Assembly (NCBI GenBank): GCA_963815115.1
Contig: CAWFFN010000005.1
Coordinates: forward strand, 128,001 to 192,000
DNA: 64,000 bases
DNA from: an uncultured delta proteobacterium
GTDB lineage: Bacteria > Desulfobacterota > Binatia > DP-6
Direction of reading: 5' to 3'
Shown one piece after another: positions 1 through 11,250 of the stretch. Below the pieces are notes generated by a model. It ran no database searches and was not told the DNA's origin. It was given only the letters and a program-made list of their open reading frames with translations. How positions within the stretch are numbered: the first letter of the stretch is position 1; each line of letters opens with the position of its first letter. The position numbers and the translations under genes are program-made.

Positions 1-1111
1 AGAACGTCTGCGCCACGATCGTCGGCACGACGGCGCTGCCGATGACGACCGTGACCAGCACGGTGTACTGCGTCTGGTCGATGTAGTGGTTCTCGAGACC
101 GAAGAGCGCCGAGATGGTACCGAAGGTGAGTCCGGTGGCCATCATGAGCGTCGTGTAGTTGGCTTCCCGACGTGGCAGCCGGAATGCGCGCGCCACCGGC
201 CACACGCCGATGAACTTCGCACCCAGCTTGACGCCGAGGAGCGCGATCACGAGGCCGGCGCTCGTCGCCAGCGCGGGGAGCGAGACGAAGAGCCCCGCCT
301 TCAGGAAATAGAACGGCGTCAGCATGGTGAAGGCTATCGAGCGCATCCGGGTGACGAGGATGCGGTCCTGCAGGAAGACCCCCGCCACAACGAGCCCGAT
401 CAAGTATGCGGGCAGCACGGCCTCGCTGCGCGCCGTCGTGGCAAGGCCGCCGAGGAAGAAGAGCACCAGGAAGAGCAACTTCACCTCCGGTTCGCTCACC
501 CGGCTCGCCCCGAACGTGCTGATGACCGCGCGCATCATCCGAGGCAGGTAGCGCAACACCACTGCAAGGATCGCCACGAAGACGATCAGCCAACGGTTGA
601 AGTCCGCGAAGAATACACCCAGCGCCAGGACCGTCCCGAAGTCGGTCACGAAGCAGGCGGCGAGAATCATCTTCCCGATGCTCCTGCTGCTGAGCCCGGT
701 CTCGACCATCACCGCGTAGACCACGGCGACCGACGTGGTCGAGAGCGCGATGCCACAGATGAGCGCCCCCTCGTACGTCCAGCCGATCACCCAGGAGGCG
801 AAGGCCCACGCCGCGAGGAAGGGCACCAGGAACGACACGATGCCGATCGTCAGCGCAGCCTTGAGGTGCGTACGCAGCGAGTCGGGATCGATCTCGGCGC
901 CGGCGAGGAAGGTGAGCAGACCCGCACCGAAGGTGGCGAGGAAGTTGATCCAGTCTGTGGTGTGGAAGCCCAGGAAGTTACCCGCGACGACGCCCATCCC
1001 GATCTCGAGCAACGCGACGGAGATGCCAGTGCGGATCGAGAGCACGCTGGCGACGAAGGCGAGCAGCATCCAGGCCGCCGCGATGAACCAGACGTTGGTT
1101 ATGTGCTCCAT
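1..1111 (-). CDS. cation:proton antiporter (CPA2 / Na+/H+ exchanger family), 3' end runs off the window
   Basis: Not in the ORF track because it is truncated. Manual translation from ATG at 1111 (GGAGGG RBS upstream) gives MEHITNVWFIAAAWMLLAFVASVLSIRTGISVALLEIGMGVVAGNFLG...LLTFLAGAEID..., a polytopic hydrophobic protein with LSTTSVAVVY and ACFVTDFGTV segments typical of CPA transporters. Confidence 0.88.
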   Translation of the reverse strand, partial: MEHITNVWFIAAAWMLLAFVASVLSIRTGISVALLEIGMGVVAGNFLGFHTTDWINFLATFGAGLLTFLAGAEIDPDSLRTHLKAALTIGIVSFLVPFLAAWAFASWVIGWTYEGALICGIALSTTSVAVVYAVMVETGLSSRSIGKMILAACFVTDFGTVLALGVFFADFNRWLIVFVAILAVVLRYLPRMMRAVISTFGASRVSEPEVKLLFLVLFFLGGLATTARSEAVLPAYLIGLVVAGVFLQDRILVTRMRSIAFTMLTPFYFLKAGLFVSLPALATSAGLVIALLGVKLGAKFIGVWPVARAFRLPRREANYTTLMMATGLTFGTISALFGLENHYIDQTQYTVLVTVVIGSAVVPTIVAQTF

Positions 1112-1346
1112 CGTCCGCCCTCCGTCTCGCCGGCCCGTCTGCGGGCGCATCCGGGCGACGAGCGCCCGGTCGTGACGACGCGATCGCGGCCACGGGGTCG
1201 AACGGTCCCTCGAGTGGCGCCGGTGAAGTCACGCCCTGCGACCGCGCTGCCCGGGACGCCGCCCCGCGTGCGCCAAGCCCTCTCGCAACCCGTCGGGCCG
1301 CGGTGCCTGGCTGTCTGCTGTGGGACCCCTCCCATGTGTTCTCCAG

Positions 1347-1397
1347 GTAGGGGTCATCAGCCCTGAGGGCGACTGTGCGGCGAACCCCATCCAAACC
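1347..1397 (-). promoter_or_regulatory. fluoride riboswitch (crcB motif) copy 1, upstream of the antiporter; 5' P1 strand atypical
   Basis: Minus strand GGTTTG-GATGGGGTTCGCC-GCACAGTC-GCCCT-C-AGGGC-TGATGACCCCTAC contains the conserved GATGG..GT..CGCC and GCTGATGAC..CCTAC blocks and a GGGGT/ACCCC pseudoknot pairing. Confidence 0.8.
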
Positions 1398-1474
1398 GGC
1401 AACAGAGGCCGCCGTCACCCGCGGTTTGGGATGTCAGCGCGCCCGCAGCAGGGCCGCCGCCCCGACAGCTCCCA

Positions 1475-2680
1475 TCACCGCCGCGTAGCCGAAGCCGGCG
1501 GCCGGCGAGACGGAGGCCAGAGCCATCCCACCAGCGCGCTGGCCACCAGGTCGCCCACGCCGTTGACCGCCGCGAGTGCGCCGAAGCCCGTGCCGCGCAG
1601 GGGCTCCGGCAGCAGCTCAGCGGCAACGGCGCGCTCGAGCACCTCCTCCGCAGACAGCGCCAGCCCGGCGAGGACGAAGAGTCCCGCCAGGACGAGGAGG
1701 CTCGGTCTCGCCGGGGCGACGAGGAAGCCCGCGGCCATGCCGCTGAAGACGAGATAGCCGCCGGCGAGCACGCGGCGGGCGCCGAAACGCTCGCCGAGCA
1801 CGCCGATGGGGTAGGCTGACACGGCGTGCACGAGATTGTGCAGGACATACAGGGCCACGGCTCCGCGCGCGGGGGTGAGGAGACCGGACGACGGGAGCAT
1901 CTCGACCGCGCGCAGGACGAGCAGCGAGCGCGCGAAATCACCGAGCCCGAAGAGGAACACCGCGCCGAGAAACGCCTTGAAGCGGCGGGGCAAGCCGGCC
2001 AGGCTCGCGCGCAGCGGTTGGCGCCGCCGCACCCGCGCGATCTCCCGCACGCTCGCGAAAGCCAGCACCGACAGGACTCCCGGCACGAGTGTGAGGGCAA
2101 AGATCGGCCGGTACGCGAGGTGCCCCATGAGGACGAGGGCGACGAGCGGACCGACGACCGCACCTGCGGTATCCATGGTGCGATCGAAGCCGAACGCCCG
2201 ACCGTAGGCCCACGCCGGCACCGCCTCGGCGAGCATCGCGTCGCGTACCGGGCTGCGCATCCCGCGGCCCGTCCAGCTGATCGCGCGGACGGCGAAGACG
2301 CCGAACGGGCTGCGGGCGAGCGCGAAGGCCGCCATGCCGACCCCGGTCGCGGCATACCCCACGATGCCGATGGGCTTGCGATGTCGGAGCCCGTCGCTGA
2401 ACCAGCCCGACACGATCTTCGCCGCCGTGGAGAGGGCGTCGGACACGCCTTCGAGCAGCCCAAAGGTCGCTGCCGAGCCACCGACGCTGCTGAGGAGGAA
2501 CATCGGTAGCACGGCGGTCGCCATCTCGTGGCCGGCGTCGGAAAACAGGCTCGCGAGGCCGAACGCCAGGATGTTCCGGCTGAACCAGTCGGAGCCGGCG
2601 ATCGGAACGGCCCCTGCCCGGGATCCGGCACCGTCAGCGTCCAGGGACTTGTCCGCGCCTCGCTCGTCGCGTCTTGCCAT
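1475..2680 (-). CDS. MFS transporter
   Basis: About 12 TM segments, motif A-like SGWFSDGLRHRK and GRGMRSPVRDAML/GRAFGFDRTMDTAGA. Start moved to ATG 2680 (GGAGG RBS), because the longer track start overlaps a riboswitch. Confidence 0.88.
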   Translation of the reverse strand: MARRDERGADKSLDADGAGSRAGAVPIAGSDWFSRNILAFGLASLFSDAGHEMATAVLPMFLLSSVGGSAATFGLLEGVSDALSTAAKIVSGWFSDGLRHRKPIGIVGYAATGVGMAAFALARSPFGVFAVRAISWTGRGMRSPVRDAMLAEAVPAWAYGRAFGFDRTMDTAGAVVGPLVALVLMGHLAYRPIFALTLVPGVLSVLAFASVREIARVRRRQPLRASLAGLPRRFKAFLGAVFLFGLGDFARSLLVLRAVEMLPSSGLLTPARGAVALYVLHNLVHAVSAYPIGVLGERFGARRVLAGGYLVFSGMAAGFLVAPARPSLLVLAGLFVLAGLALSAEEVLERAVAAELLPEPLRGTGFGALAAVNGVGDLVASALVGWLWPPSRRPPASATRR

Positions 2681-2737
2681 GCGTCCTCCTGGAGCTCCGC
2701 ATGGCATGCGCATGATCTCCCGCCGTGCGGCTCGTTG

Positions 2738-2793
2738 GCAGGAGTCATCACCCCGACGTGCTACGCGGGGAATTCGGGCGGACCCCATCGCCC
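2738..2793 (-). promoter_or_regulatory. fluoride riboswitch (crcB motif) copy 2, upstream of the MFS gene
   Basis: Minus strand GGGCG-ATGGGGTC-CGCCC-GAATT-CCCCG..CGGGG-TGATGACTCCTGC: P1 GGGCG/CGCCC, ATGG loop, second stem, TGATGAC and GGGGT/ACTCC pseudoknot. Confidence 0.88.
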
Positions 2794-2811
2794 GTCGGTA
2801 CGTCTGCAGCG

Positions 2812-2840
2812 TGGATATTCGCCGTTCCTGTCTGCGTCAA
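2812..2840 (-). promoter_or_regulatory. putative sigma70 promoter for the riboswitch 2-MFS transcript
   Basis: TTGACG-N17-TATCCA on the minus strand, about 20 nt upstream of riboswitch 2; the -10 is imperfect. Confidence 0.4.
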
Positions 2841-2884
2841 CGCCGCCGGGAAGGCATGGCGGTGCTCCTGCGGGAGCCGGCGCC

Positions 2885-2913
2885 TTGTCGCGTCGTGCGA
2901 ACGTTGCTAGGTT
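2885..2913 (+). promoter_or_regulatory. putative sigma70 promoter for the riboswitch 3-dynamin-crcB operon
   Basis: TTGTCG-N17-TAGGTT with an extended TGn, 17 nt upstream of riboswitch 3. Confidence 0.5.
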
Positions 2914-2930
2914 CCAACCAGCTAATCGGC

Positions 2931-2986
2931 GGGCATGGGGTGCGCCCGGAACCGCCGCCGGTCACCCGGCGGCTGATGACTCCTCG
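2931..2986 (+). promoter_or_regulatory. fluoride riboswitch (crcB motif) copy 3, upstream of the dynamin-crcB operon
   Basis: GGGC-ATGGGGTGC-GCCC-GG-AACC-GCCGCCGG-TCAC-CCGGCGGC-TGATGACTCCT shows P1, the AAC linker, the second stem, GCTGATGAC and the pseudoknot; it leads an operon containing crcB. Confidence 0.85.
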
Positions 2987-3010
2987 ACCGAACGTAAACC
3001 CGAGGACATC

Positions 3011-4738
3011 ATGCCCGCCGCCGCACAGCCAACCGCAACCACGCCGCCCGCGGAGCCGCTGCATCACCTAGCGACGCTCGCGGAGGCGGTCGGTCTCGCC
3101 GGCGTCGCCGACGAGGCGCGGGCCTTTGCCGGGCGCGTCGCCGAGGGGCGCTTCTTCGTGGCCTGCGTGGGGCAGTTCAAGCGCGGGAAGTCCACCCTGC
3201 TGAACGCTCTGGTCGGCGACCCTGTCCTGCCGACCGGCGTCGTGCCCGTCACCGCGGTCGTGACCGTCGTCCGACACGGAGCGGGGCGGCGGGCGCGCGT
3301 GCGCCACGTCCACGGGGACTGGGAAGACGTCCCCGTCGATCGGCTTGCCGACTACGTGACCGAGGACGGGAACCCGGGGAACCAGCGGCGCATCGCCGGT
3401 GTCGAGGTCTTCGTTCCCCATCGCCTCCTCGCCGCCGGGATGTGCCTCGTCGACACCCCCGGCCTCGGCTCCGTCTTCACCGCGAGCACGGAGGCCACTC
3501 GCGCCTTTCTCCCCCACCTGGACGCCGCCGTGATCGTGCTCGGCGCCGACCCGCCGATCTCCGCCGAGGAGCTGGAGCTGGTCGCCGCTGCGGCCGGACA
3601 GGTGACCGACCTCATCGTCGTCTTCAACAAGGCGGATCGCCTGTCCGACACCGAGCGGACGGATGCGCGCGCGTTCACCGACCGTGTGCTCCGCGAACGC
3701 CTCGGCCATTCTGTCGGCCGCATCCTCGATGTCAGCGCCACCGAGCGCCTCGCAGCGACGGGCCCGGCGCGCGACTGGGACGCCCTGTGTCTCGCGCTCG
3801 AGACGCTGGCGGTGCGCTCGGGCGCGGACCTGGTGCGCGCGGCGGAGGCCAGAGGACTGCGCGTGCTCACGGGACGCTTGCTGGGCGAGCTGGACGAGCG
3901 TCGCGACGCGCTCCTCCGCCCGCTGGACGAGTCCGTCGCACGGATCGAGGTGCTGCGCCGGAGCGTCGCGGAGGCCGAGGATGCGCTCGCCGACCTCCAC
4001 TATCAGCTCGCCGGCGAGCAGGAGCGGCTCACGCGCGAGCTGGGCGACCGGCTCCGGGGCTTCCTCGCCAAGGCGATCCACCAGGCCCGGCGCGCGTTCG
4101 CGCGCTCGATGGAGCCATCCCGCGGGCGCCGCGGCAAGGCCCTGCGCGAGGATGCCGTTCAGCAGGCGCAGGGCGTTGCGCGAGCCGTCTTCGACCGCTG
4201 GCGCGTCGAGGAGGCGCCTGCAGCCGAGGCGCGATACCGCGAGACGTCGCGCCGCTTCGTCGACACCGCGAACGCGTTTCTCACCCGCATCGGGTCGGCC
4301 GCTGCCTTCGACGCAGTACACGTCCCCCACGTCCTGGGCGAGGAGACCGGCTTCCGCGTCACGAGCGACCTTCGCTACACGGAGCTGCTGTACCTCACCA
4401 TGCCGCCGCCGCTTGCTCGCCCGCTTCTGATCCTCCTCACGCGACGGCAGGAGTTCCGTCTCGTGAGCCGTCGTGGCGCCGACTACCTCGAACGGCTCGT
4501 CTTCACGAATGCGCATCGGGTCACCAACGCGCTGATCGAGCAGGCCCTGGAGAGCCGTCGCCGGCTGGAGGCGGACCTCGGGCACCAACTGTACGAGGTC
4601 GTCCGTTGTGCCGAACGGGCGCTGGCGGAGGCGCGAGCCTACCAGGCCAGGGGGCAGGCGGCCGTCGAGGCGGAGCTCCACCGCCTCGAATCATTGCGCG
4701 ACGCGGTGGCCACGCTGACACCGCCCGGTGGCCCGTGA
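3011..4738 (+). CDS. bacterial dynamin-like GTPase (dynamin family protein)
   Basis: G1 GQFKRGKSTLLN, G2 PTGVVPVT, G3 LVDTPG, G4 NKAD, followed by a long helical/coiled-coil region. ATG 3011 with GAGGA RBS. Confidence 0.85.
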   Translation: MPAAAQPTATTPPAEPLHHLATLAEAVGLAGVADEARAFAGRVAEGRFFVACVGQFKRGKSTLLNALVGDPVLPTGVVPVTAVVTVVRHGAGRRARVRHVHGDWEDVPVDRLADYVTEDGNPGNQRRIAGVEVFVPHRLLAAGMCLVDTPGLGSVFTASTEATRAFLPHLDAAVIVLGADPPISAEELELVAAAAGQVTDLIVVFNKADRLSDTERTDARAFTDRVLRERLGHSVGRILDVSATERLAATGPARDWDALCLALETLAVRSGADLVRAAEARGLRVLTGRLLGELDERRDALLRPLDESVARIEVLRRSVAEAEDALADLHYQLAGEQERLTRELGDRLRGFLAKAIHQARRAFARSMEPSRGRRGKALREDAVQQAQGVARAVFDRWRVEEAPAAEARYRETSRRFVDTANAFLTRIGSAAAFDAVHVPHVLGEETGFRVTSDLRYTELLYLTMPPPLARPLLILLTRRQEFRLVSRRGADYLERLVFTNAHRVTNALIEQALESRRRLEADLGHQLYEVVRCAERALAEARAYQARGQAAVEAELHRLESLRDAVATLTPPGGP

Positions 4739-5106
4739 AGGGGGTTCTCTGGGTCGGCCTGGGCGGCTTTGTCGGGGCCAACGCCCGCTACCTGCTCGCG
4801 ACCTGGATCGCGGGACGCGCGGGCACCACCTTCCCGCTCGGGACGTTGGTCATCAACCTCTCGGGCAGCTTCGTCCTGGGCCTGCTCGTCGGTGTGCTCG
4901 AGAATCACGTCACTCCGCCGACGCTGCGGCTGGCGCTCGCCACCGGATTCCTCGGCGCCTATACCACGTTCTCGACGTTCACCTACGAGACGATTCGACT
5001 GGTCGAGGAAGGCAGCGTCCTGCTGGCGGCGCTCAACGCCGGCGGGAGCCTCGCACTCGGGCTCGGCGCCGTCTTCGGCGGCCTCGGTCTCGGGAGAGCC
5101 CTGTGA
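4735..5106 (+). CDS. crcB: fluoride efflux channel Fluc/CrcB
   Basis: 123 aa; GGFVGANARY, FPLGTLVINLSGSF and GFLGAYTTFSTF signatures. The GTG overlaps the upstream stop (GTGA). Confidence 0.95.
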   Translation: MKGVLWVGLGGFVGANARYLLATWIAGRAGTTFPLGTLVINLSGSFVLGLLVGVLENHVTPPTLRLALATGFLGAYTTFSTFTYETIRLVEEGSVLLAALNAGGSLALGLGAVFGGLGLGRAL

Positions 5107-5137
5107 CGCCCGGCCCACGGCACGAGGAGGTATCGTC

Positions 5138-6418
5138 ATGCGCGGCAAACGGATGACCATCTTCATCGACGAGACCGACCATTGGGGGCACCGGTCGCTG
5201 TACCTCGCCATCCTCGAGCGCCTGAAGGCCGCCGGATGCGCCGGCGCCACGGCCGTCCGCGGCGTCGCCGGGTTCGGCCCGCACTCGCAGATCAAGACCG
5301 CACGTCTGGTCGACGTGGTGATGGCGCTGCCGATCGTGATCAGCGTGATCGACCTCCCTGACCGCATCGAGCGCTTCGCCGGCGAGGTGGCGGAGATGAT
5401 GTCGGGGGGGGTGGTCGTGCTGGAGGATGTCGAGGTCCACTTCTACTCCGCCGCCTTCCGTGGGGGCCTGCCCGACGTCGAGGTGGCCGACGTCATGTCC
5501 CGCGCCCCGGAATTCGTCACGCCGGACACGCCGCTGGTGGAAGTGGTCCGGCGGTTGCTCGAGCGCGACTACACGGTGCTGCCCGTGGTGGACCCGGAGC
5601 GCCGGGTGGTGGGAGTCATCGGCGACCAAGACCTGCTCGCCCGGGGCGTCATCAGCGAGAGCCTGCACATGCACCGGGCGACCGCTGAAATCCCGCCCGA
5701 CACGCTGCAGCGGCTCACGTCGAACGGCGGCGTGGTGCGCGACGTGATGACCGCACCGGCCACGACGGTGCAGGAATCCGCGCGCGTCCCCGAAGCCGCG
5801 CGGCTGATGCACGAGCGACATCTGAAGCGGCTGCCCGTCGTCGACGACGCGGGCCACCTGGTGGGCGTGGTCGGTCGGCTCGATATCCTGAGCAGCATCG
5901 CGGCCGGCTATACGCGCAGGACGGCCCCGCGCACCGCGGGGCTTCCACAGGAACATCGCACGGTGGGCGAGATCATGGAGCGCGGGGTTCCGACCGTGGC
6001 AGAGACGACGCCCCTCGGCGACGTGGTGGAGCGCCTGCTCGACTCGGCGGTCCACGAGGTGATCGTGGTCGACGCTGAGGGGCGGCCACTCGGCATCATC
6101 ACGGCCGCCAACGTCTTGGTGAGAGCGGACCCGGTGGAGCGGCCCGGCCTGCTCACCCAGCTGCGCAGCCGCTGGAACGCGGAGGCCAAGCGGCAGGTGC
6201 GCCGCGTGTACGGCCAGCGGGCGGCGGACGTGATGGCGTCGCCTGTGATCACCGTCCGCGACACCGACCCGGTGATGACGGCGCTCACGCTCTCGGCCAC
6301 GAAGCACGTGAAGCGTCCACCGGTCGTGGACGGCGAGGGGCGGCTCGTGGGGGTGGTGGGGCGACCGGCCCTGCTGGCGGCGTCGCTCGACGTGGACACC
6401 GGCGACGCGGAGAAATGA
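5138..6418 (+). CDS. DUF190 (PII-like) domain fused to two CBS pairs
   Basis: N-terminal GCAGATAVRGVAGFG...LPIVISVID is DUF190-like, followed by repeated VADVM/LPVVD...VGVI CBS motifs (4x). GAGGAGG RBS. Confidence 0.85.
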   Translation: MRGKRMTIFIDETDHWGHRSLYLAILERLKAAGCAGATAVRGVAGFGPHSQIKTARLVDVVMALPIVISVIDLPDRIERFAGEVAEMMSGGVVVLEDVEVHFYSAAFRGGLPDVEVADVMSRAPEFVTPDTPLVEVVRRLLERDYTVLPVVDPERRVVGVIGDQDLLARGVISESLHMHRATAEIPPDTLQRLTSNGGVVRDVMTAPATTVQESARVPEAARLMHERHLKRLPVVDDAGHLVGVVGRLDILSSIAAGYTRRTAPRTAGLPQEHRTVGEIMERGVPTVAETTPLGDVVERLLDSAVHEVIVVDAEGRPLGIITAANVLVRADPVERPGLLTQLRSRWNAEAKRQVRRVYGQRAADVMASPVITVRDTDPVMTALTLSATKHVKRPPVVDGEGRLVGVVGRPALLAASLDVDTGDAEK

Positions 6419-6929
6419 GTCAGGTCATTCGGGGGGTCAGCGCGGGGAGCGCCGAAGCGGGGCCACGGACGTCTGCCGCCATTCGCCGACGATCTCCCCG
6501 GGGCTGCCTCTTGCGGACCTATCTAAAGATGTCGCATTGGCGTTGACAGATCGCGCCGCGCGGCCATCCGTCGGTCCCCGACCCCAGCGCCGCCCGGCTG
6601 TAGAGCTACTTGTCGTGCCCGACATGAAGGGGCCAGGCGAGTTCCCGCGCACCCATGGGTTGAACACGGTTGCGGCCGATCCGGGATGCTACAATGAAGT
6701 CAGCTGGAGATCCAGAAGAGGAGGCCGCATCGTGATGACGAAGTCGGGGAGGGAACAGCAGCGCCGGGGTTGCGCAAGGCGGGCGCCCCGCGCTGAGATC
6801 GAGGCTTCGTTGCTGGGCACAGCCGAAGCCCGACGTGTTCGGCGTGCAGCATGAGCTGCGGCACATCGTGCGGAGGCTCGAGGTGATTCCTGAATCGGCC
6901 GGACGAGAAGTTGTCACGGAGAAGGGACG

Positions 6930-7250
6930 ATGGTGACGAAGCCGCGCTCACGTCTGCGCGATGAGACCCTCATTGCGCTCCTCGGCCCCGGGGACACCGC
7001 CACCCTCTGCCAGTTCGGTGGCGGGCGGCGCGTGCCGAGCCACGCGCAGTACCTCGCGTGGCAGCGGCGGCTGCTGCTCCTCCACGACTGGCTGCACAAC
7101 GGCTACAGCCAGCGCGCGCTCGCGGCCAAGTACGGGCTGTCCCTCCCGGCCGTGAAGAAGCTCGCGACGTCCTACCTGCGCCAGAAGCGTCTCGCGGAAT
7201 TGCGCGGCACCACCGGACGCGGTCCGGCGTCGCCGAGGCGCGGTTCATGA
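6930..7250 (+). CDS. Mor/C-like HTH transcriptional regulator (phage-derived)
   Basis: LCQFGGGRRVP ... NGYSQRALAAKYGLSLPAVKKL resembles the Mor activator pattern; AAGGGA RBS. Confidence 0.5.
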   Translation: MVTKPRSRLRDETLIALLGPGDTATLCQFGGGRRVPSHAQYLAWQRRLLLLHDWLHNGYSQRALAAKYGLSLPAVKKLATSYLRQKRLAELRGTTGRGPASPRRGS

Positions 7251-7573: not shown

Positions 7574-7646
7574 TGGAGCCGAGGGGAGTCGAACCCCCGA
7601 CCTCTAGAGTGCGATTCTAGCGCTCTCCCAGCTGAGCTACGGCCCC
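7574..7646 (-). tRNA. tRNA-Ala(CGC)
   Basis: GGGGCCGTAGCTCAGCTGGGAGAGCG-CTAGA-ATCGCAC-TCTAG-AGGTC-GGGGGTTCGACTCCCC-TCGGCTCCA forms a cloverleaf with a G3-U70 pair and anticodon CGC; CCA not encoded. Confidence 0.96.
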
Positions 7647-7738: not shown

Positions 7739-8020
7739 TCAGCGCTTCGACGCCGGGGGCTTCACATTGATGATGAGATCGCCGTCCGTCGCCAGCGCCG
7801 CACCACCCTCGTGACGCTGCCACCCGTCTCCCCCTCGCTTCCAGCGGCTGATCTCTCGCGGCTGAGGCAGCTCGAGGCGGCGGCGGACGTCCTCCGCCAT
7901 GCGCTCGGCCCTGAGCAGATCGGTTGCGCGCGGCGTTTCGCTGCGCGGCTGATCGACCAGCCCGACAGCCCGAGAGCCCAGCAATCCGCCCAACATCAGC
8001 ATTGCCAGCATGGTGCGCAT
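7739..8020 (-). CDS. small hypothetical protein with signal-peptide-like N-terminus
   Basis: [15 protein letters not shown]... fills the gap between copA and the tRNA; no recognised family. Confidence 0.35.
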
Positions 8021-8087
8021 GCGGACCACGGGAGCACGCGTCGTGCCGGGGTTTGACACGCCGGCCGGAGGACCCGAAAGGCTCTCC

Positions 8088-10361
8088 ATGGGCGAGGCGG
8101 CGCGGGACCCGGTGTGCGGGATGAGTGTCGATCCCGCGCGAACGCCGCACCACGACGTTCGCAACGGGGTGACCTATCACTTCTGCGGCGCTCGCTGCGT
8201 CGAGCGCTTCCGTGCCGATCCCGAGCGCTTCCTCGCCCCGGCGGTGCCGCAGCCCGCGCCGATCGCGGCGGAATACACCTGTCCGATGCATCCCGAGATC
8301 GTGCGTCCGTCCCCGGGCACGTGTCCGATCTGCGGCATGGCGCTCGAGCCGCGCGCCGTCTCGCTCGATGGCGAGGAATCGAATCCCGAGCTCGACGACA
8401 TGACGCGCCGGCTGTGGGTCAGCGCCGCGTTCACCCTGCCGCTGTTCCTGCTCGCCATGTCGGACATGCTTCCGGGGCAGCCGATCCAGCACGCGCTCGG
8501 GCACCGCGCGCTGGCCTGGATCCAGCTCGCGCTCGCGACGCCCGTCGTGCTCTGGGGCGCGCGTCCGTTCTTCGAGCGCGGCGTGGCCTCGATCCGGAAC
8601 CGGCACCTCAACATGTTCACCCTGATCGCGCTCGGGACCGGCGTCGCCTACGCCTACAGCCTGGTCGCGACGCTGGCGCCGTGGCTGATCCCCTCCGGCG
8701 GGCCACACGGAGTGCCGATCTACTTCGAAGCGGCTGCAGTCATCACCACGCTCGTCCTGCTCGGCCAGGTGCTCGAGCTGCGCGCCCGCAGCCGCACCGG
8801 GAGCGCGCTGCGGGCGCTCCTGGGCCTCGCGCCGAAGACCGCGCGGCGCCTCGCCGACGATGGCGGCGAGGTCGACGTGGCGCTCGAGCAGGTCGTGGTC
8901 GGCGACCGGCTGCGCGTCCGTCCGGGCGAGAAGGTGCCCGTCGACGGCGTCGTGCTCGAGGGGCGCAGCAGCGTCGACGAGTCGATGATCACCGGCGAGC
9001 CCATCCCGGTGGAGAAGACCGCCGGCTCGCGGGTCACGGGGGGCACGGTGAACGGCACCGGCGGGCTCGTCGTCCGCGCCGATCGGGTGGGGCGCGACAC
9101 GCTGCTGGCGCAGATCGTGCGTCTCGTCGGCGAGGCGCAGCGCAGCCGCGCGCCGATCCAGCGCCTCGCCGACGTCGTGTCCGGCTGGTTCGTGCCCGGC
9201 GTGATCGCGATCGCGGTCCTGGCCTTCGTCGCGTGGATGACCTTCGGACCCGAGCCGCGCCTGGCCCACGCGCTCGTCGCCGCGGTGAGCGTGCTCATCA
9301 TCGCCTGCCCGTGCGCGCTCGGGCTCGCGACGCCCATGTCGATCATGGTCGGTACCGGCCGGGGTGCGACCGCCGGCGTCCTCGTGCGCAACGCCGAGGC
9401 CCTCGAGGTCCTCGAGAAGGTGGACACGCTGGTGGTCGACAAGACCGGCACGCTCACGGAGGGGAAGCCACGGCTCGTGGCCGCCCCCGGCGACGACGTG
9501 CTCCGCCTGGCCGCGAGCCTCGAGCGCGGCAGCGAGCATCCGCTGGCGGCGGCGGTGGTCGAGGGCGCGCGCGAGCGCGGCATCCGCGACCTGCCGCCCG
9601 CGACCGACTTTCGCTCGCACACCGGGAAGGGCGTCGTCGGGAGCGTCGAGGGCCACCAGGTCGTGCTCGGGAACGCCGCGCTGCTCGCGGAGCTGGGCGT
9701 CGGCGCGGCGGCGCTCGAGACCGACGCGGACGCCCTGCGACGCCAGGGGCAGACGGTGATGCTGGTCGGCGTCGACGGCCGGCCTGCCGGGCTGCTCGGC
9801 GTCGCGGACCCGGTGAAGGCGTCGACTCCCGAGGCGCTCGCCGCGCTGCGGGCGGACGGCATTCGCATCGTGATGCTGACCGGCGACGCCCGCGTCACCG
9901 CGGCGGCGGTCGCGCAGGCGCTCGGGATCGACGAGCTCGAGGCCGAGGTGCTGCCGGAGCGCAAGGGCGAGGTCGTCGCTCGTCTCGCCGCGGCCGGCCA
10001 CGTCGTCGCCATGGCCGGCGACGGCGTGAACGACGCGCCGGCGCTCGCCCGGTCGCACGTGGGGATCGCCATGGGGACCGGTACCGACGTCGCCATGGAG
10101 TCGGCCGGCGTGACCCTCGTGCGCGGCGACCTGCGCGGCATCGTGCGGGCGCGGCGGCTGTCGCGCGCCGTCATGCGCAACATCCGCCAGAACCTGTTTC
10201 TCGCCTTCGTCTACAACGCGGTCGGCGTGCCGATCGCGGCGGGCGTGCTGTATCCCGCCTTCGGCCTGCTCCTGAGCCCGATGATCGCGGCGGCCGCGAT
10301 GAGCCTGAGCTCGGTGTCGGTGATCTCGAACGCGCTCCGCCTCGGGAGAGCGCCGCTGTAG
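8088..10361 (+). CDS. copA: Cu+/Ag+-translocating P1B-type ATPase with YHS and heavy-metal-binding N-terminal domains
   Basis: DPVCGM..YHFC (YHS), [38 protein letters not shown] and MSLSS TM motifs. Confidence 0.92.
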
Positions 10362-10451: not shown

Positions 10452-11183
10452 CTACCGCCCGACGACCGCCCCCAGGGCGGCCATGAGCGCGATGCCGCCG
10501 AGAAAGGGCACGTAGATCCAGACGCCCGACGAGGGCCGGTGGTGGTGGAGCTGGGGGATCAGATCCGAGCCGGCGATGTAGATGAACATGCCGGCGGTCG
10601 CGGTCATGAACCACGCCAGATGGTGCTCGATCGGCTTGACGGAGAAGAAGAGCAGCGGGCCGAGCATCGCCATGAGCCCGGTGGCGAAGTTGAGGAGCAG
10701 GGCGGTGCGGAACGAGTACCCGCTACTCGTGAGGATGGTGAAGTCGGCAATCTCCTTCGGTACCTCGTGGACCGTGACCGCCAGCGTGGTGGCCAGTCCG
10801 AGCTCGGGGCTGGCGGCGAAGCTCGCCGCGATGACGACGCCGTCGATGAGGTTGTGGAGGCCGTCGCCGACCAGGACCAGGTAGCGAGACGCCTTCGCGT
10901 GGCTCTCCTCGTGCTCGTGAAAGCCGTGCAGCACGCGCTCGAGGAAGAAGAACCCGATCATCGCCGCGAGGGTGGCGACGAAGATGTTGCCATCGTGAGC
11001 GCGCTCGACGGCCTCGGGAAGGAGGTCGAGGAACGCCGTCGCGAGCAGCACGCCGGCCGCGAAGCTGAGCAGGAACGCTTCGCCGCGGGCGCCGGGTCGG
11101 CGGGCGAACAGGAAGACGATGCCGCCGAGCGCGATGACGCCCACCCACAGGGTGGCGATGAGTGACAGGGCGAGCGGGGACAT
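10452..11183 (-). CDS. ZIP family metal transporter
   Basis: FAAGVLL, His-rich loop HGFHEHEESH, GDGLHNLIDG and HEVPKEIADF motifs. Confidence 0.92.
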   Translation of the reverse strand: MSPLALSLIATLWVGVIALGGIVFLFARRPGARGEAFLLSFAAGVLLATAFLDLLPEAVERAHDGNIFVATLAAMIGFFFLERVLHGFHEHEESHAKASRYLVLVGDGLHNLIDGVVIAASFAASPELGLATTLAVTVHEVPKEIADFTILTSSGYSFRTALLLNFATGLMAMLGPLLFFSVKPIEHHLAWFMTATAGMFIYIAGSDLIPQLHHHRPSSGVWIYVPFLGGIALMAALGAVVGR

Positions 11184-11250
11184 GCGCGGCGCGACACATC
11201 TGCCTACCCCGTCGCCCTTTGGCAACCTCGTTGCGGTACGCGCCGGACGA

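Follow-up and report, generated by a model that had tools for sequence, protein, structure and literature searches.

A dynamin-like GTPase gene regularly placed behind fluoride riboswitches in soil bacteria, apparently an undescribed part of the bacterial fluoride response

The DNA considered here is a stretch of 64,000 nucleotides from an uncultured delta proteobacterium (assembly GCA_963815115.1, contig CAWFFN010000005.1, positions 128,001 to 192,000 of the forward strand; hereafter the window), in which a fluoride riboswitch stands directly before the gene for a 575-amino acid dynamin-like GTPase. This gene overlaps crcB, which encodes the fluoride channel Fluc, and the unit closes with a gene for a DUF190-CBS protein. 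By comparative genomics the widespread clade to which the GTPase belongs regularly forms part of the fluoride-riboswitch regulon of soil bacteria, and the module of riboswitch and dynamin is apparently an undescribed part of the bacterial fluoride response. On balance we read the unit as a fluoride-inducible operon, whose GTPase probably remodels or protects membranes.

The riboswitch and the operon that it heads

The aptamer that precedes the dynamin gene (Table 1) matches the fluoride riboswitch family RF01734 over model positions 10-56 and exceeds the Rfam gathering score by a narrow margin; a divergent copy in the window reaches 42.9 bits. Its P1 stem (GGGC/GCCC, with an additional base in the loop), P3, the conserved GAUGGGGU and CUGAUGACUCCU and the pseudoknot pairing were all found. 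Covariation was followed in an alignment of 37 aptamers, each situated directly before a dynamin gene (that of the window and 36 from other genomes). P1 and the pseudoknot, in which GGnG of the P1 loop pairs with a 3' CnCC, are paired in 99.4% of the cells, and compensatory change occurs in six of nine pairs, a pseudoknot pair being G-C in 24 aptamers and A-U in 13. None of 500 shuffles matched these values, and slides by one to three columns paired at 42-60%. The window's aptamer carries all the invariant positions of the alignment and each of its pairs, with one G-U and the extra loop base already mentioned.

The dynamin gene starts with ATG at 3011, 26 nucleotides past the aptamer, and GAGGA lies 5-9 nucleotides ahead of the ATG. 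The initial annotation of the window had put this distance at about 25 nucleotides; its label "riboswitch 3" for the element fits the two strong aptamers and the one weak match that the window holds. The minimum-free-energy fold of 2925-3025 (-53.7 kcal/mol, z-score -3.2) pairs UCCUCG with CGAGGA and the 5' GGCGGGCAUG with CAUGCCCGCC, and in it the 5' arm base-pairs with the start-codon region. A CUCCU/AGGAG hairpin is likewise present before the dynamin genes of five other loci (L001, L003, L005, L008 and L043). From the fold and its conservation we infer a translational ON switch. With fluoride absent, the 3' tail of the aptamer would sequester the Shine-Dalgarno sequence and the 5' arm would cover the start-codon region; with fluoride present, the pseudoknot would capture the 3' tail, the anti-Shine-Dalgarno strand would be withdrawn and the ribosome would load. 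A scan of 1200-7000 for promoters and terminators gave one promoter-like and two terminator-like sites, about the same as in shuffled sequences.

The GTPase motifs reported as intact in the initial annotation are GQFKRGKS (residues 54-61), DTPG (148-151) and NKAD (206-209), and the 575-amino acid protein matches Pfam Dynamin_N well above its cut-off (E 4.9e-24; 85.7 bits against 27). A homologue of 93% identity is likewise 575 amino acids long. The overlap of the dynamin stop with the crcB start, also described before, was located at 4735-4738, where GTGA contains both the stop codon of the dynamin gene and the GTG start of crcB; through this overlap translation of crcB may be coupled to that of the dynamin. 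Each part of the initial description of the locus was thus confirmed, the narrow margin of the aptamer being the one caveat. The CrcB product is well supported by Pfam CRCB (E 8.3e-28; 97.2 bits against 32.9) and TIGR00494 (98.3 bits against 80.45), and the 426-amino acid protein at the end of the unit matches DUF190 (E 6.6e-31) and, in four stretches, CBS (E 1.5e-47). The genome has a second crcB (G000:C12:485070-485408, minus strand), which has no dynamin beside it and lies on a contig in which no match to the fluoride riboswitch was found; the dynamin-coupled crcB would therefore be the inducible one of the two.

Recurrence of the pairing in other genomes

Among 8000 candidate proteins scored, 3770 were related to the window's dynamin at E <= 0.001, and the best 120 of them are 537-630 amino acids long. 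A scan with one genome per species supplied 76 loci of about 13 kb with a dynamin relative, and 71 whole genomes; by their record titles these related genomes are metagenome-assembled, except for two Sorangium outgroups. A search of the 71 genomes with RF01734 gave 150 matches in 66 genomes. Of these, 75 fall inside the dynamin loci (76 if one that was missed by the motif check is included), the matches having been placed on the loci by coordinates together with an aptamer-motif check, and 11 candidates on other contigs having been dropped. Since the dynamin loci represent about 0.3% of the DNA of these genomes, fewer than one riboswitch match would be expected inside them by chance.

A riboswitch on the same strand upstream of the dynamin match is present in 53 of the 76 loci, and any fluoride riboswitch in 57; crcB occurs in 37, DUF190 in 43, and at least one of the three in 68. 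By taxon as titled, dynamin loci with a plus-strand riboswitch number 47 of 60 in the Acidobacteriota, 4 of 6 in the Myxococcota, both of those titled "delta proteobacterium", one of two each in the Binatota and the Methylomirabilota, and the single one of the Gemmatimonadota. The outgroups, two Sorangium (about 30% identity) and one Akkermansia, are without a riboswitch. Among metagenome loci, 11 of 20 (the first 20 of 80) have a fluoride riboswitch at the Rfam cut-off.

The phylum to which the window belongs was sampled separately, with 200 other genomes drawn evenly and a relative called at E <= 1e-30. A dynamin relative, of 28-42% identity, was found in 31 of them, and all 31 have fluoride riboswitches. 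By coordinates, a riboswitch on the same strand lies within 3 kb upstream of the dynamin in 28 of the 31, and within 1 kb in 27; the exceptions are two genomes in which the riboswitch is on another contig (G151, G185) and one in which the gene begins at a contig edge (G243). Seventeen genomes have a single riboswitch match, which precedes the dynamin gene in 14, and in some genomes no gene unit other than that of the dynamin was found behind a fluoride riboswitch. The initial annotation had proposed counting how often this dynamin clade occurs together with fluoride genes; in several phyla the clade proved to be very strongly associated with fluoride riboswitches, crcB and DUF190.

The genes that accompany the pair vary. 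In this phylum only 4 of 30 loci have crcB within 1.5 kb of the dynamin, and the genes downstream encode a major facilitator superfamily (MFS) transporter, enolase, a Na+/H+ exchanger, DUF6062 or unrelated proteins. The constant feature is therefore the pair of riboswitch and dynamin, not that of dynamin and crcB. Elsewhere the riboswitch is immediately ahead of the dynamin gene in ten loci (L001, L003, L005-L008, L042, L043, L059 and L060). Many Terriglobales have the order riboswitch, dynamin paralogue of about 690 amino acids, crcB, 205-amino acid open reading frame (ORF), double DUF190, single DUF190, small P-loop NTPase, and dynamin of about 580 amino acids; another order among the related loci is riboswitch followed by crcB-DUF190-dynamin. 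The three closest metagenomic relatives (74-78% identity) have dynamin-crcB (overlapping)-CBS protein, Na+/H+ exchanger-dynamin-crcB, and riboswitch-Na+/H+ exchanger-Usp-dynamin, the last being the order in the close relative L111.

Two of the accompanying genes recur in their own right. The small P-loop NTPase (about 250-263 amino acids, weakly AAA_16/STAND-like) lies directly upstream of the dynamin of about 580 amino acids in 38 of the 76 loci (for example L034:5153-5944), and the 205-amino acid ORF lies between crcB and DUF190 in 14 (L034:3454-4071). The window contains neither of them.

A FastTree tree of 125 dynamin sequences, which has several long branches and is used descriptively, places the window's protein beside a Binatia protein and within the clade of the paralogues of about 580 amino acids; the paralogues of about 690 amino acids and the proteins of the window's own phylum form other riboswitch-linked groups. 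The window's dynamin shares 56% identity with this Binatia protein against 28-42% with its relatives in the phylum. Because the nearest relatives of the dynamin are in other phyla, horizontal transfer of the fluoride island is plausible, and the sequences suggest that it was acquired in this way.

The protein and its possible role

The AlphaFold2 model of the dynamin, built on an alignment of 49 sequences, has a mean predicted local distance difference test (pLDDT) score of 80.9 and a predicted template modelling (pTM) score of 0.57. Two N-terminal helices are followed by the G domain (about 48-250), three very long helices (256-430), a tip of low confidence (431-477) and a returning pair of long helices (478-567). 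The model confirms the helical stalk noticed at first inspection, whose neck and trunk combine N-terminal with C-terminal helices. Foldseek against the PDB ranks IniA of M. smegmatis first (6j72; E 1.8e-19), followed by Nostoc BDLP (2j69; 2.6e-17), C. jejuni DLP1/DLP2, the mitofusins and SynDLP, the matches to IniA and BDLP being full-length; a sequence search puts the structures in the same order, again with IniA at the top (E 6.8e-16). The G1, G3 and G4 residues are invariant among the 49 homologues. The trunk tip is conserved as well (E445, G447, F448, R449, Y456, T457, P467) and contains many aromatic and basic residues. The window's protein is thus a true bacterial dynamin-like protein, and its clade has no characterised member; among solved structures IniA is the closest to it, at an identity of about 20%.

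Two other identities were considered and rejected. The NCBIfam equivalogs for DynA and CrfC are far out of reach (NF052648, 55.5 bits against 1600; NF007368, 38.3 against 1146), and the matches to the anti-phage proteins LeoA and LeoBC (28.2 and 26.5 bits) cover the G domain only, the neighbouring genes here being crcB, DUF190-CBS and MFS.

A natural variant was found in G214, a genome from the family to which the window's genome belongs, in which a riboswitch (L106, 2487-2549) is followed by a gene for a 334-amino acid dynamin derivative (L106:1474-2478, minus strand). The variant aligns to residues 1-58 and 301-566 of the window's protein, so that the whole G domain is gone in frame; its gene is overlapped by crcB, and DUF190 comes next. 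No Dynamin_N match was found anywhere in that genome. The model of the variant shows a confident helical stalk (pLDDT 82.8, pTM 0.71). It is either a recent remnant or a stalk with a role independent of GTP.

The reading that we favour, to which we would give close to an even chance, is that the dynamin is a membrane-protective or membrane-remodelling GTPase active under fluoride stress. The conserved tip of its trunk would attach the GTPase to the cytoplasmic membrane, and GTP-driven assembly would then remodel, seal or stabilise the membrane under fluoride (HF/acid) stress, by analogy with IniA and DynA. Among the three mechanisms offered in the initial annotation, repair of membranes under fluoride or acid stress accordingly remains the likeliest. 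According to the accessible text of PMC6715688, IniA is induced by drugs, binds acidic lipids by its tip loop, performs GTP-dependent fission and has been proposed to act in membrane integrity; DynA is described, in the text available on it, as gathering on membranes after pore-forming insults; and fluoride up-regulates membrane-integrity genes and potentiates cell-wall drugs, as stated in the accessible part of PMC11139923. It is because of the stress induction of IniA, the clustering of DynA on membranes and the rise of membrane-integrity genes under fluoride that a role at the membrane is preferred.

Several points weigh against this account. The aptamer of the window is barely at the Rfam cut-off (34.3 bits against 34). 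Twenty-three of the 76 loci are without a same-strand riboswitch inside the locus, and eight (L023, L029, L062, L063, L064 and the three outgroups) have no riboswitch, crcB or DUF190; for seven of the 23 (L010, L028, L037, L038, L040, L056 and L071) a match lies just beyond the locus, as judged by coordinates only. The counts also overstate independence, because the related genomes are kin, mostly Acidobacteriota. As to the mechanism, what points to membrane binding and remodelling is the fold of the protein and analogy with other dynamins, and the trunk tip has a low pLDDT and no strongly hydrophobic stretch. Finally, GTP hydrolysis may be dispensable for the job of the stalk, since a riboswitch-gated variant with the stalk only exists.

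The initial annotation had suggested that the dynamin supports Fluc, and one alternative is that it works on or with the channel, in the insertion of the dual-topology dimer, in clustering or in gating, the operon encoding one physical machine. The overlap of dynamin stop and crcB start is real and is shared by the window, the 77%-identical L109 and the sister-genus variant that lacks the G domain; crcB, as noted, is present in nearly half of the dynamin loci; and the accessible text of PMC11139923 knows of no natural regulator of Fluc, so that such a role is vacant. Set against this, most of the riboswitch-gated dynamins in the window's phylum have no crcB within 1.5 kb, the 575-amino acid paralogue of the Acidobacteriota is separated from crcB by four genes and about 2.5 kb, and the second crcB of the genome has no neighbouring dynamin. 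Support of Fluc by the dynamin is therefore not a requirement of the arrangement, in which the riboswitch often gates the dynamin alone, and a partnership of the two is unlikely. A prediction of the complex of the dynamin with two copies of CrcB scored 0.01 (mark 0.32), which gives no answer and bears neither way.

Fluoride might also act on the GTPase itself. Metal fluorides trap the G domains of the dynamin family as transition-state dimers, and aluminium is soluble in acid peat and bog soils. GDP-MgF3- or GDP-AlF4- would lock the G-domain dimer, which would make the protein a fluoride-triggered membrane scaffold or a fluoride sink instead of a GTPase that cycles in the usual way. The strict conservation of the GTPase motifs and the origin of many source records, by title, in acid peat or bog soils agree with such trapping. 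The persistence of the stalk-only variant does not, no sequence feature in its favour was found, and as a sink the protein could bind only trivial amounts compared with a channel; we regard this alternative as improbable. Control by fluoride at two levels has likewise been considered, the clade being then a dedicated effector of fluoride stress: the riboswitch would set the amount of the protein, and GDP with Mg- or Al-fluoride would hold the G domains as a transition-state dimer, so that the protein would assemble on the membrane, next to Fluc or surrounding it, for only as long as the cell contains fluoride. This proposal is distinctly unlikely; if it were true, it would provide the first case of a defined chemical trigger for a bacterial dynamin, and Fluc would gain its first partner at the protein level.

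GTPases are sensitive to metal fluorides, and it had been suggested that induction of the dynamin offsets fluoride inhibition. The gene would then be a spare copy that replaces a fluoride-poisoned housekeeping dynamin, as for enolase and pyrophosphatase, and enolase genes do occur in some of these operons (8 of 76 loci, and L092). The proposal fails because the riboswitch-gated gene is the sole clear Dynamin_N gene of the window's genome, which is 100% complete, and exactly one Dynamin_N gene is present in 20 of the 30 genomes of the phylum with a match; where Acidobacteriota have two, both belong to one riboswitch-headed operon. We consider it very improbable.

Equally improbable is the absence of any functional link, the dynamin being a passenger or a LeoA/DynA-type anti-phage gene on a mobile fluoride island: the closeness to other phyla that suggests horizontal transfer and the PADLOC matches (LeoBC 2.5e-7, LeoA 8.3e-7) could be cited for it, but the latter are weak and reflect the shared GTPase domain only, the riboswitch directly precedes the dynamin across numerous independent arrangements of genes, in units that often lack any other fluoride gene, and the dynamins of the Sorangium and Akkermansia outgroups have no riboswitch.

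Other elements of the window and relation to known systems

The features of the fluoride island are collected in Table 1.

Table 1. Fluoride riboswitches and associated genes in the window (positions count from the first nucleotide of the window)
Feature	Position	Strand	Basis
Fluoride riboswitch aptamer (crcB motif), heading the dynamin operon	2931-2984	+	Rfam RF01734, 34.3 bits
Putative expression platform	2981-3013	+	Aptamer 3' tail UCCUCG can pair with Shine-Dalgarno region CGAGGA (3001-3006); start codon 3011
Dynamin-like GTPase, 575 amino acids	3011-4738	+	Translation, Dynamin_N, AlphaFold2, Foldseek
crcB (Fluc fluoride channel), 123 amino acids	4735-5106	+	CRCB, TIGR00494
DUF190 (PII-like) fused to four CBS domains, 426 amino acids, last gene of the unit	5138-6418	+	
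Second fluoride riboswitch, divergent, before the MFS gene	2801-2732	-	RF01734, 42.9 bits, full model
MFS transporter, 412 amino acids	2713-1475	-	MFS_1, E 6.4e-28
Weak third fluoride-riboswitch-like element	1401-1341	-	RF01734, 21.2 bits, E 0.19, below cut-off
Na+/H+ exchanger gene, cut by the window start	2-1150	-	Na_H_Exchanger, E 1.7e-35

Homologues of the window's MFS transporter are found in 8 of the 76 dynamin loci, where they adjoin the dynamin, and also in L077, L082 and L088; a literature search for fluoride riboswitches together with major facilitators returned no paper on such a pairing, judged by title. In the weak third element, which came up in a permissive search, P3, CUGAUGACCCCU, the GGGG loop and the pseudoknot strands are recognisable, and P1 is irregular. 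It lies about 190 nucleotides upstream of the Na+/H+ exchanger gene, with a 78-codon ORF in another frame between them. Past the fluoride island, and separated from it by a tRNA gene (7574-7646, minus strand), are genes for a P-type ATPase with YHS and heavy-metal-binding domains (8010-10361, plus strand) and a ZIP metal transporter (10452-11225, minus strand). The genome contains two further strong fluoride riboswitches, G000:C5:114832-114894 (minus strand; L107) and G000:C9:267757-267820 (plus strand; L108), with 55.8 and 51.7 bits; the ORFs downstream of them gave no clear Pfam family, the sole match being a weak one to NYN. The sequencing runs that were checked included no RNA run, and 18 DNA runs contained at most one quarter of the sampled words.

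To our knowledge, the roles of bacterial dynamin-like proteins are largely open, and few of these proteins have a known inducing signal. A clade that stands behind a riboswitch for a single ligand offers a clean handle: when fluoride is added, the protein should appear. The bacterial fluoride response may, in turn, extend past exporters and spare enzymes to a membrane-remodelling arm. In the full-text literature searched, no paper was found that connects dynamin-like proteins with fluoride riboswitches, with crcB or with the tolerance of fluoride, although such genes might be among those tabulated in the supplements to Baker et al. 2012 and Weinberg 2010. The gene associations of the riboswitch that are named in the accessible text of Weinberg 2010, of reviews from 2020 and 2022 and of PMC11139923 are mutS, K+/Cl- transport, formate hydrogen lyase, exporters and phosphate genes, and in that text dynamins and GTPases go unmentioned. 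The suggestion in the initial annotation of an undescribed conserved module that ties a dynamin to fluoride has therefore been borne out, both by the strength of the co-occurrence and by the lack of a description in the literature searched. The module is relevant to the tolerance of fluoride in acid soils and to the engineering of microbes for the degradation of organofluorines, for which fluoride toxicity is a stated bottleneck (PMC11139923, in its accessible part).

With the anti-phage systems LeoABC and "Dynamins" the window's protein shares the dynamin-type GTPase domain; it differs in that the PADLOC matches are weak and partial and no LeoA/LeoBC gene set is present at the locus. A closer likeness is seen to IniA of M. 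smegmatis and M. tuberculosis (6j72, 6j73), which is induced by cell-wall drugs and is part of the iniBAC operon. Both proteins are single-headed, of about 600 amino acids, with G domain, neck and trunk bundles and, less certainly in the window's protein, a tip loop, and IniA is also stress-induced and, by the accessible text of PMC6715688, thought to keep the plasma membrane intact. On the other hand, the identity is about 20%, the sequence match spans the G domain only, and IniA is not known to have a riboswitch ahead of it or a tie to crcB, DUF190 or fluoride.

The paired dynamins C. jejuni DLP1/DLP2 (5owv), together with Nostoc BDLP (2j68, 2j69) and B. subtilis DynA, have the same fold, and the present clade likewise occurs as an operon pair, of about 690 and about 580 amino acids, in the Acidobacteriota. 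The window's genome differs in possessing a single dynamin with no partner, and in the literature searched there was no report of DLP1/DLP2, BDLP or DynA with a fluoride riboswitch or crcB. In comparison with the canonical fluoride-riboswitch operons (crcB/Fluc, eriC-F/CLC-F, Na+/H+ antiporter, enolase, Usp), the aptamer class, RF01734, is the same, and the companions crcB, Na+/H+ exchanger, Usp and enolase are all found in dynamin loci; the difference is that here the first, and often the only, gated gene encodes a dynamin-like GTPase rather than a transporter or a fluoride-sensitive enzyme.

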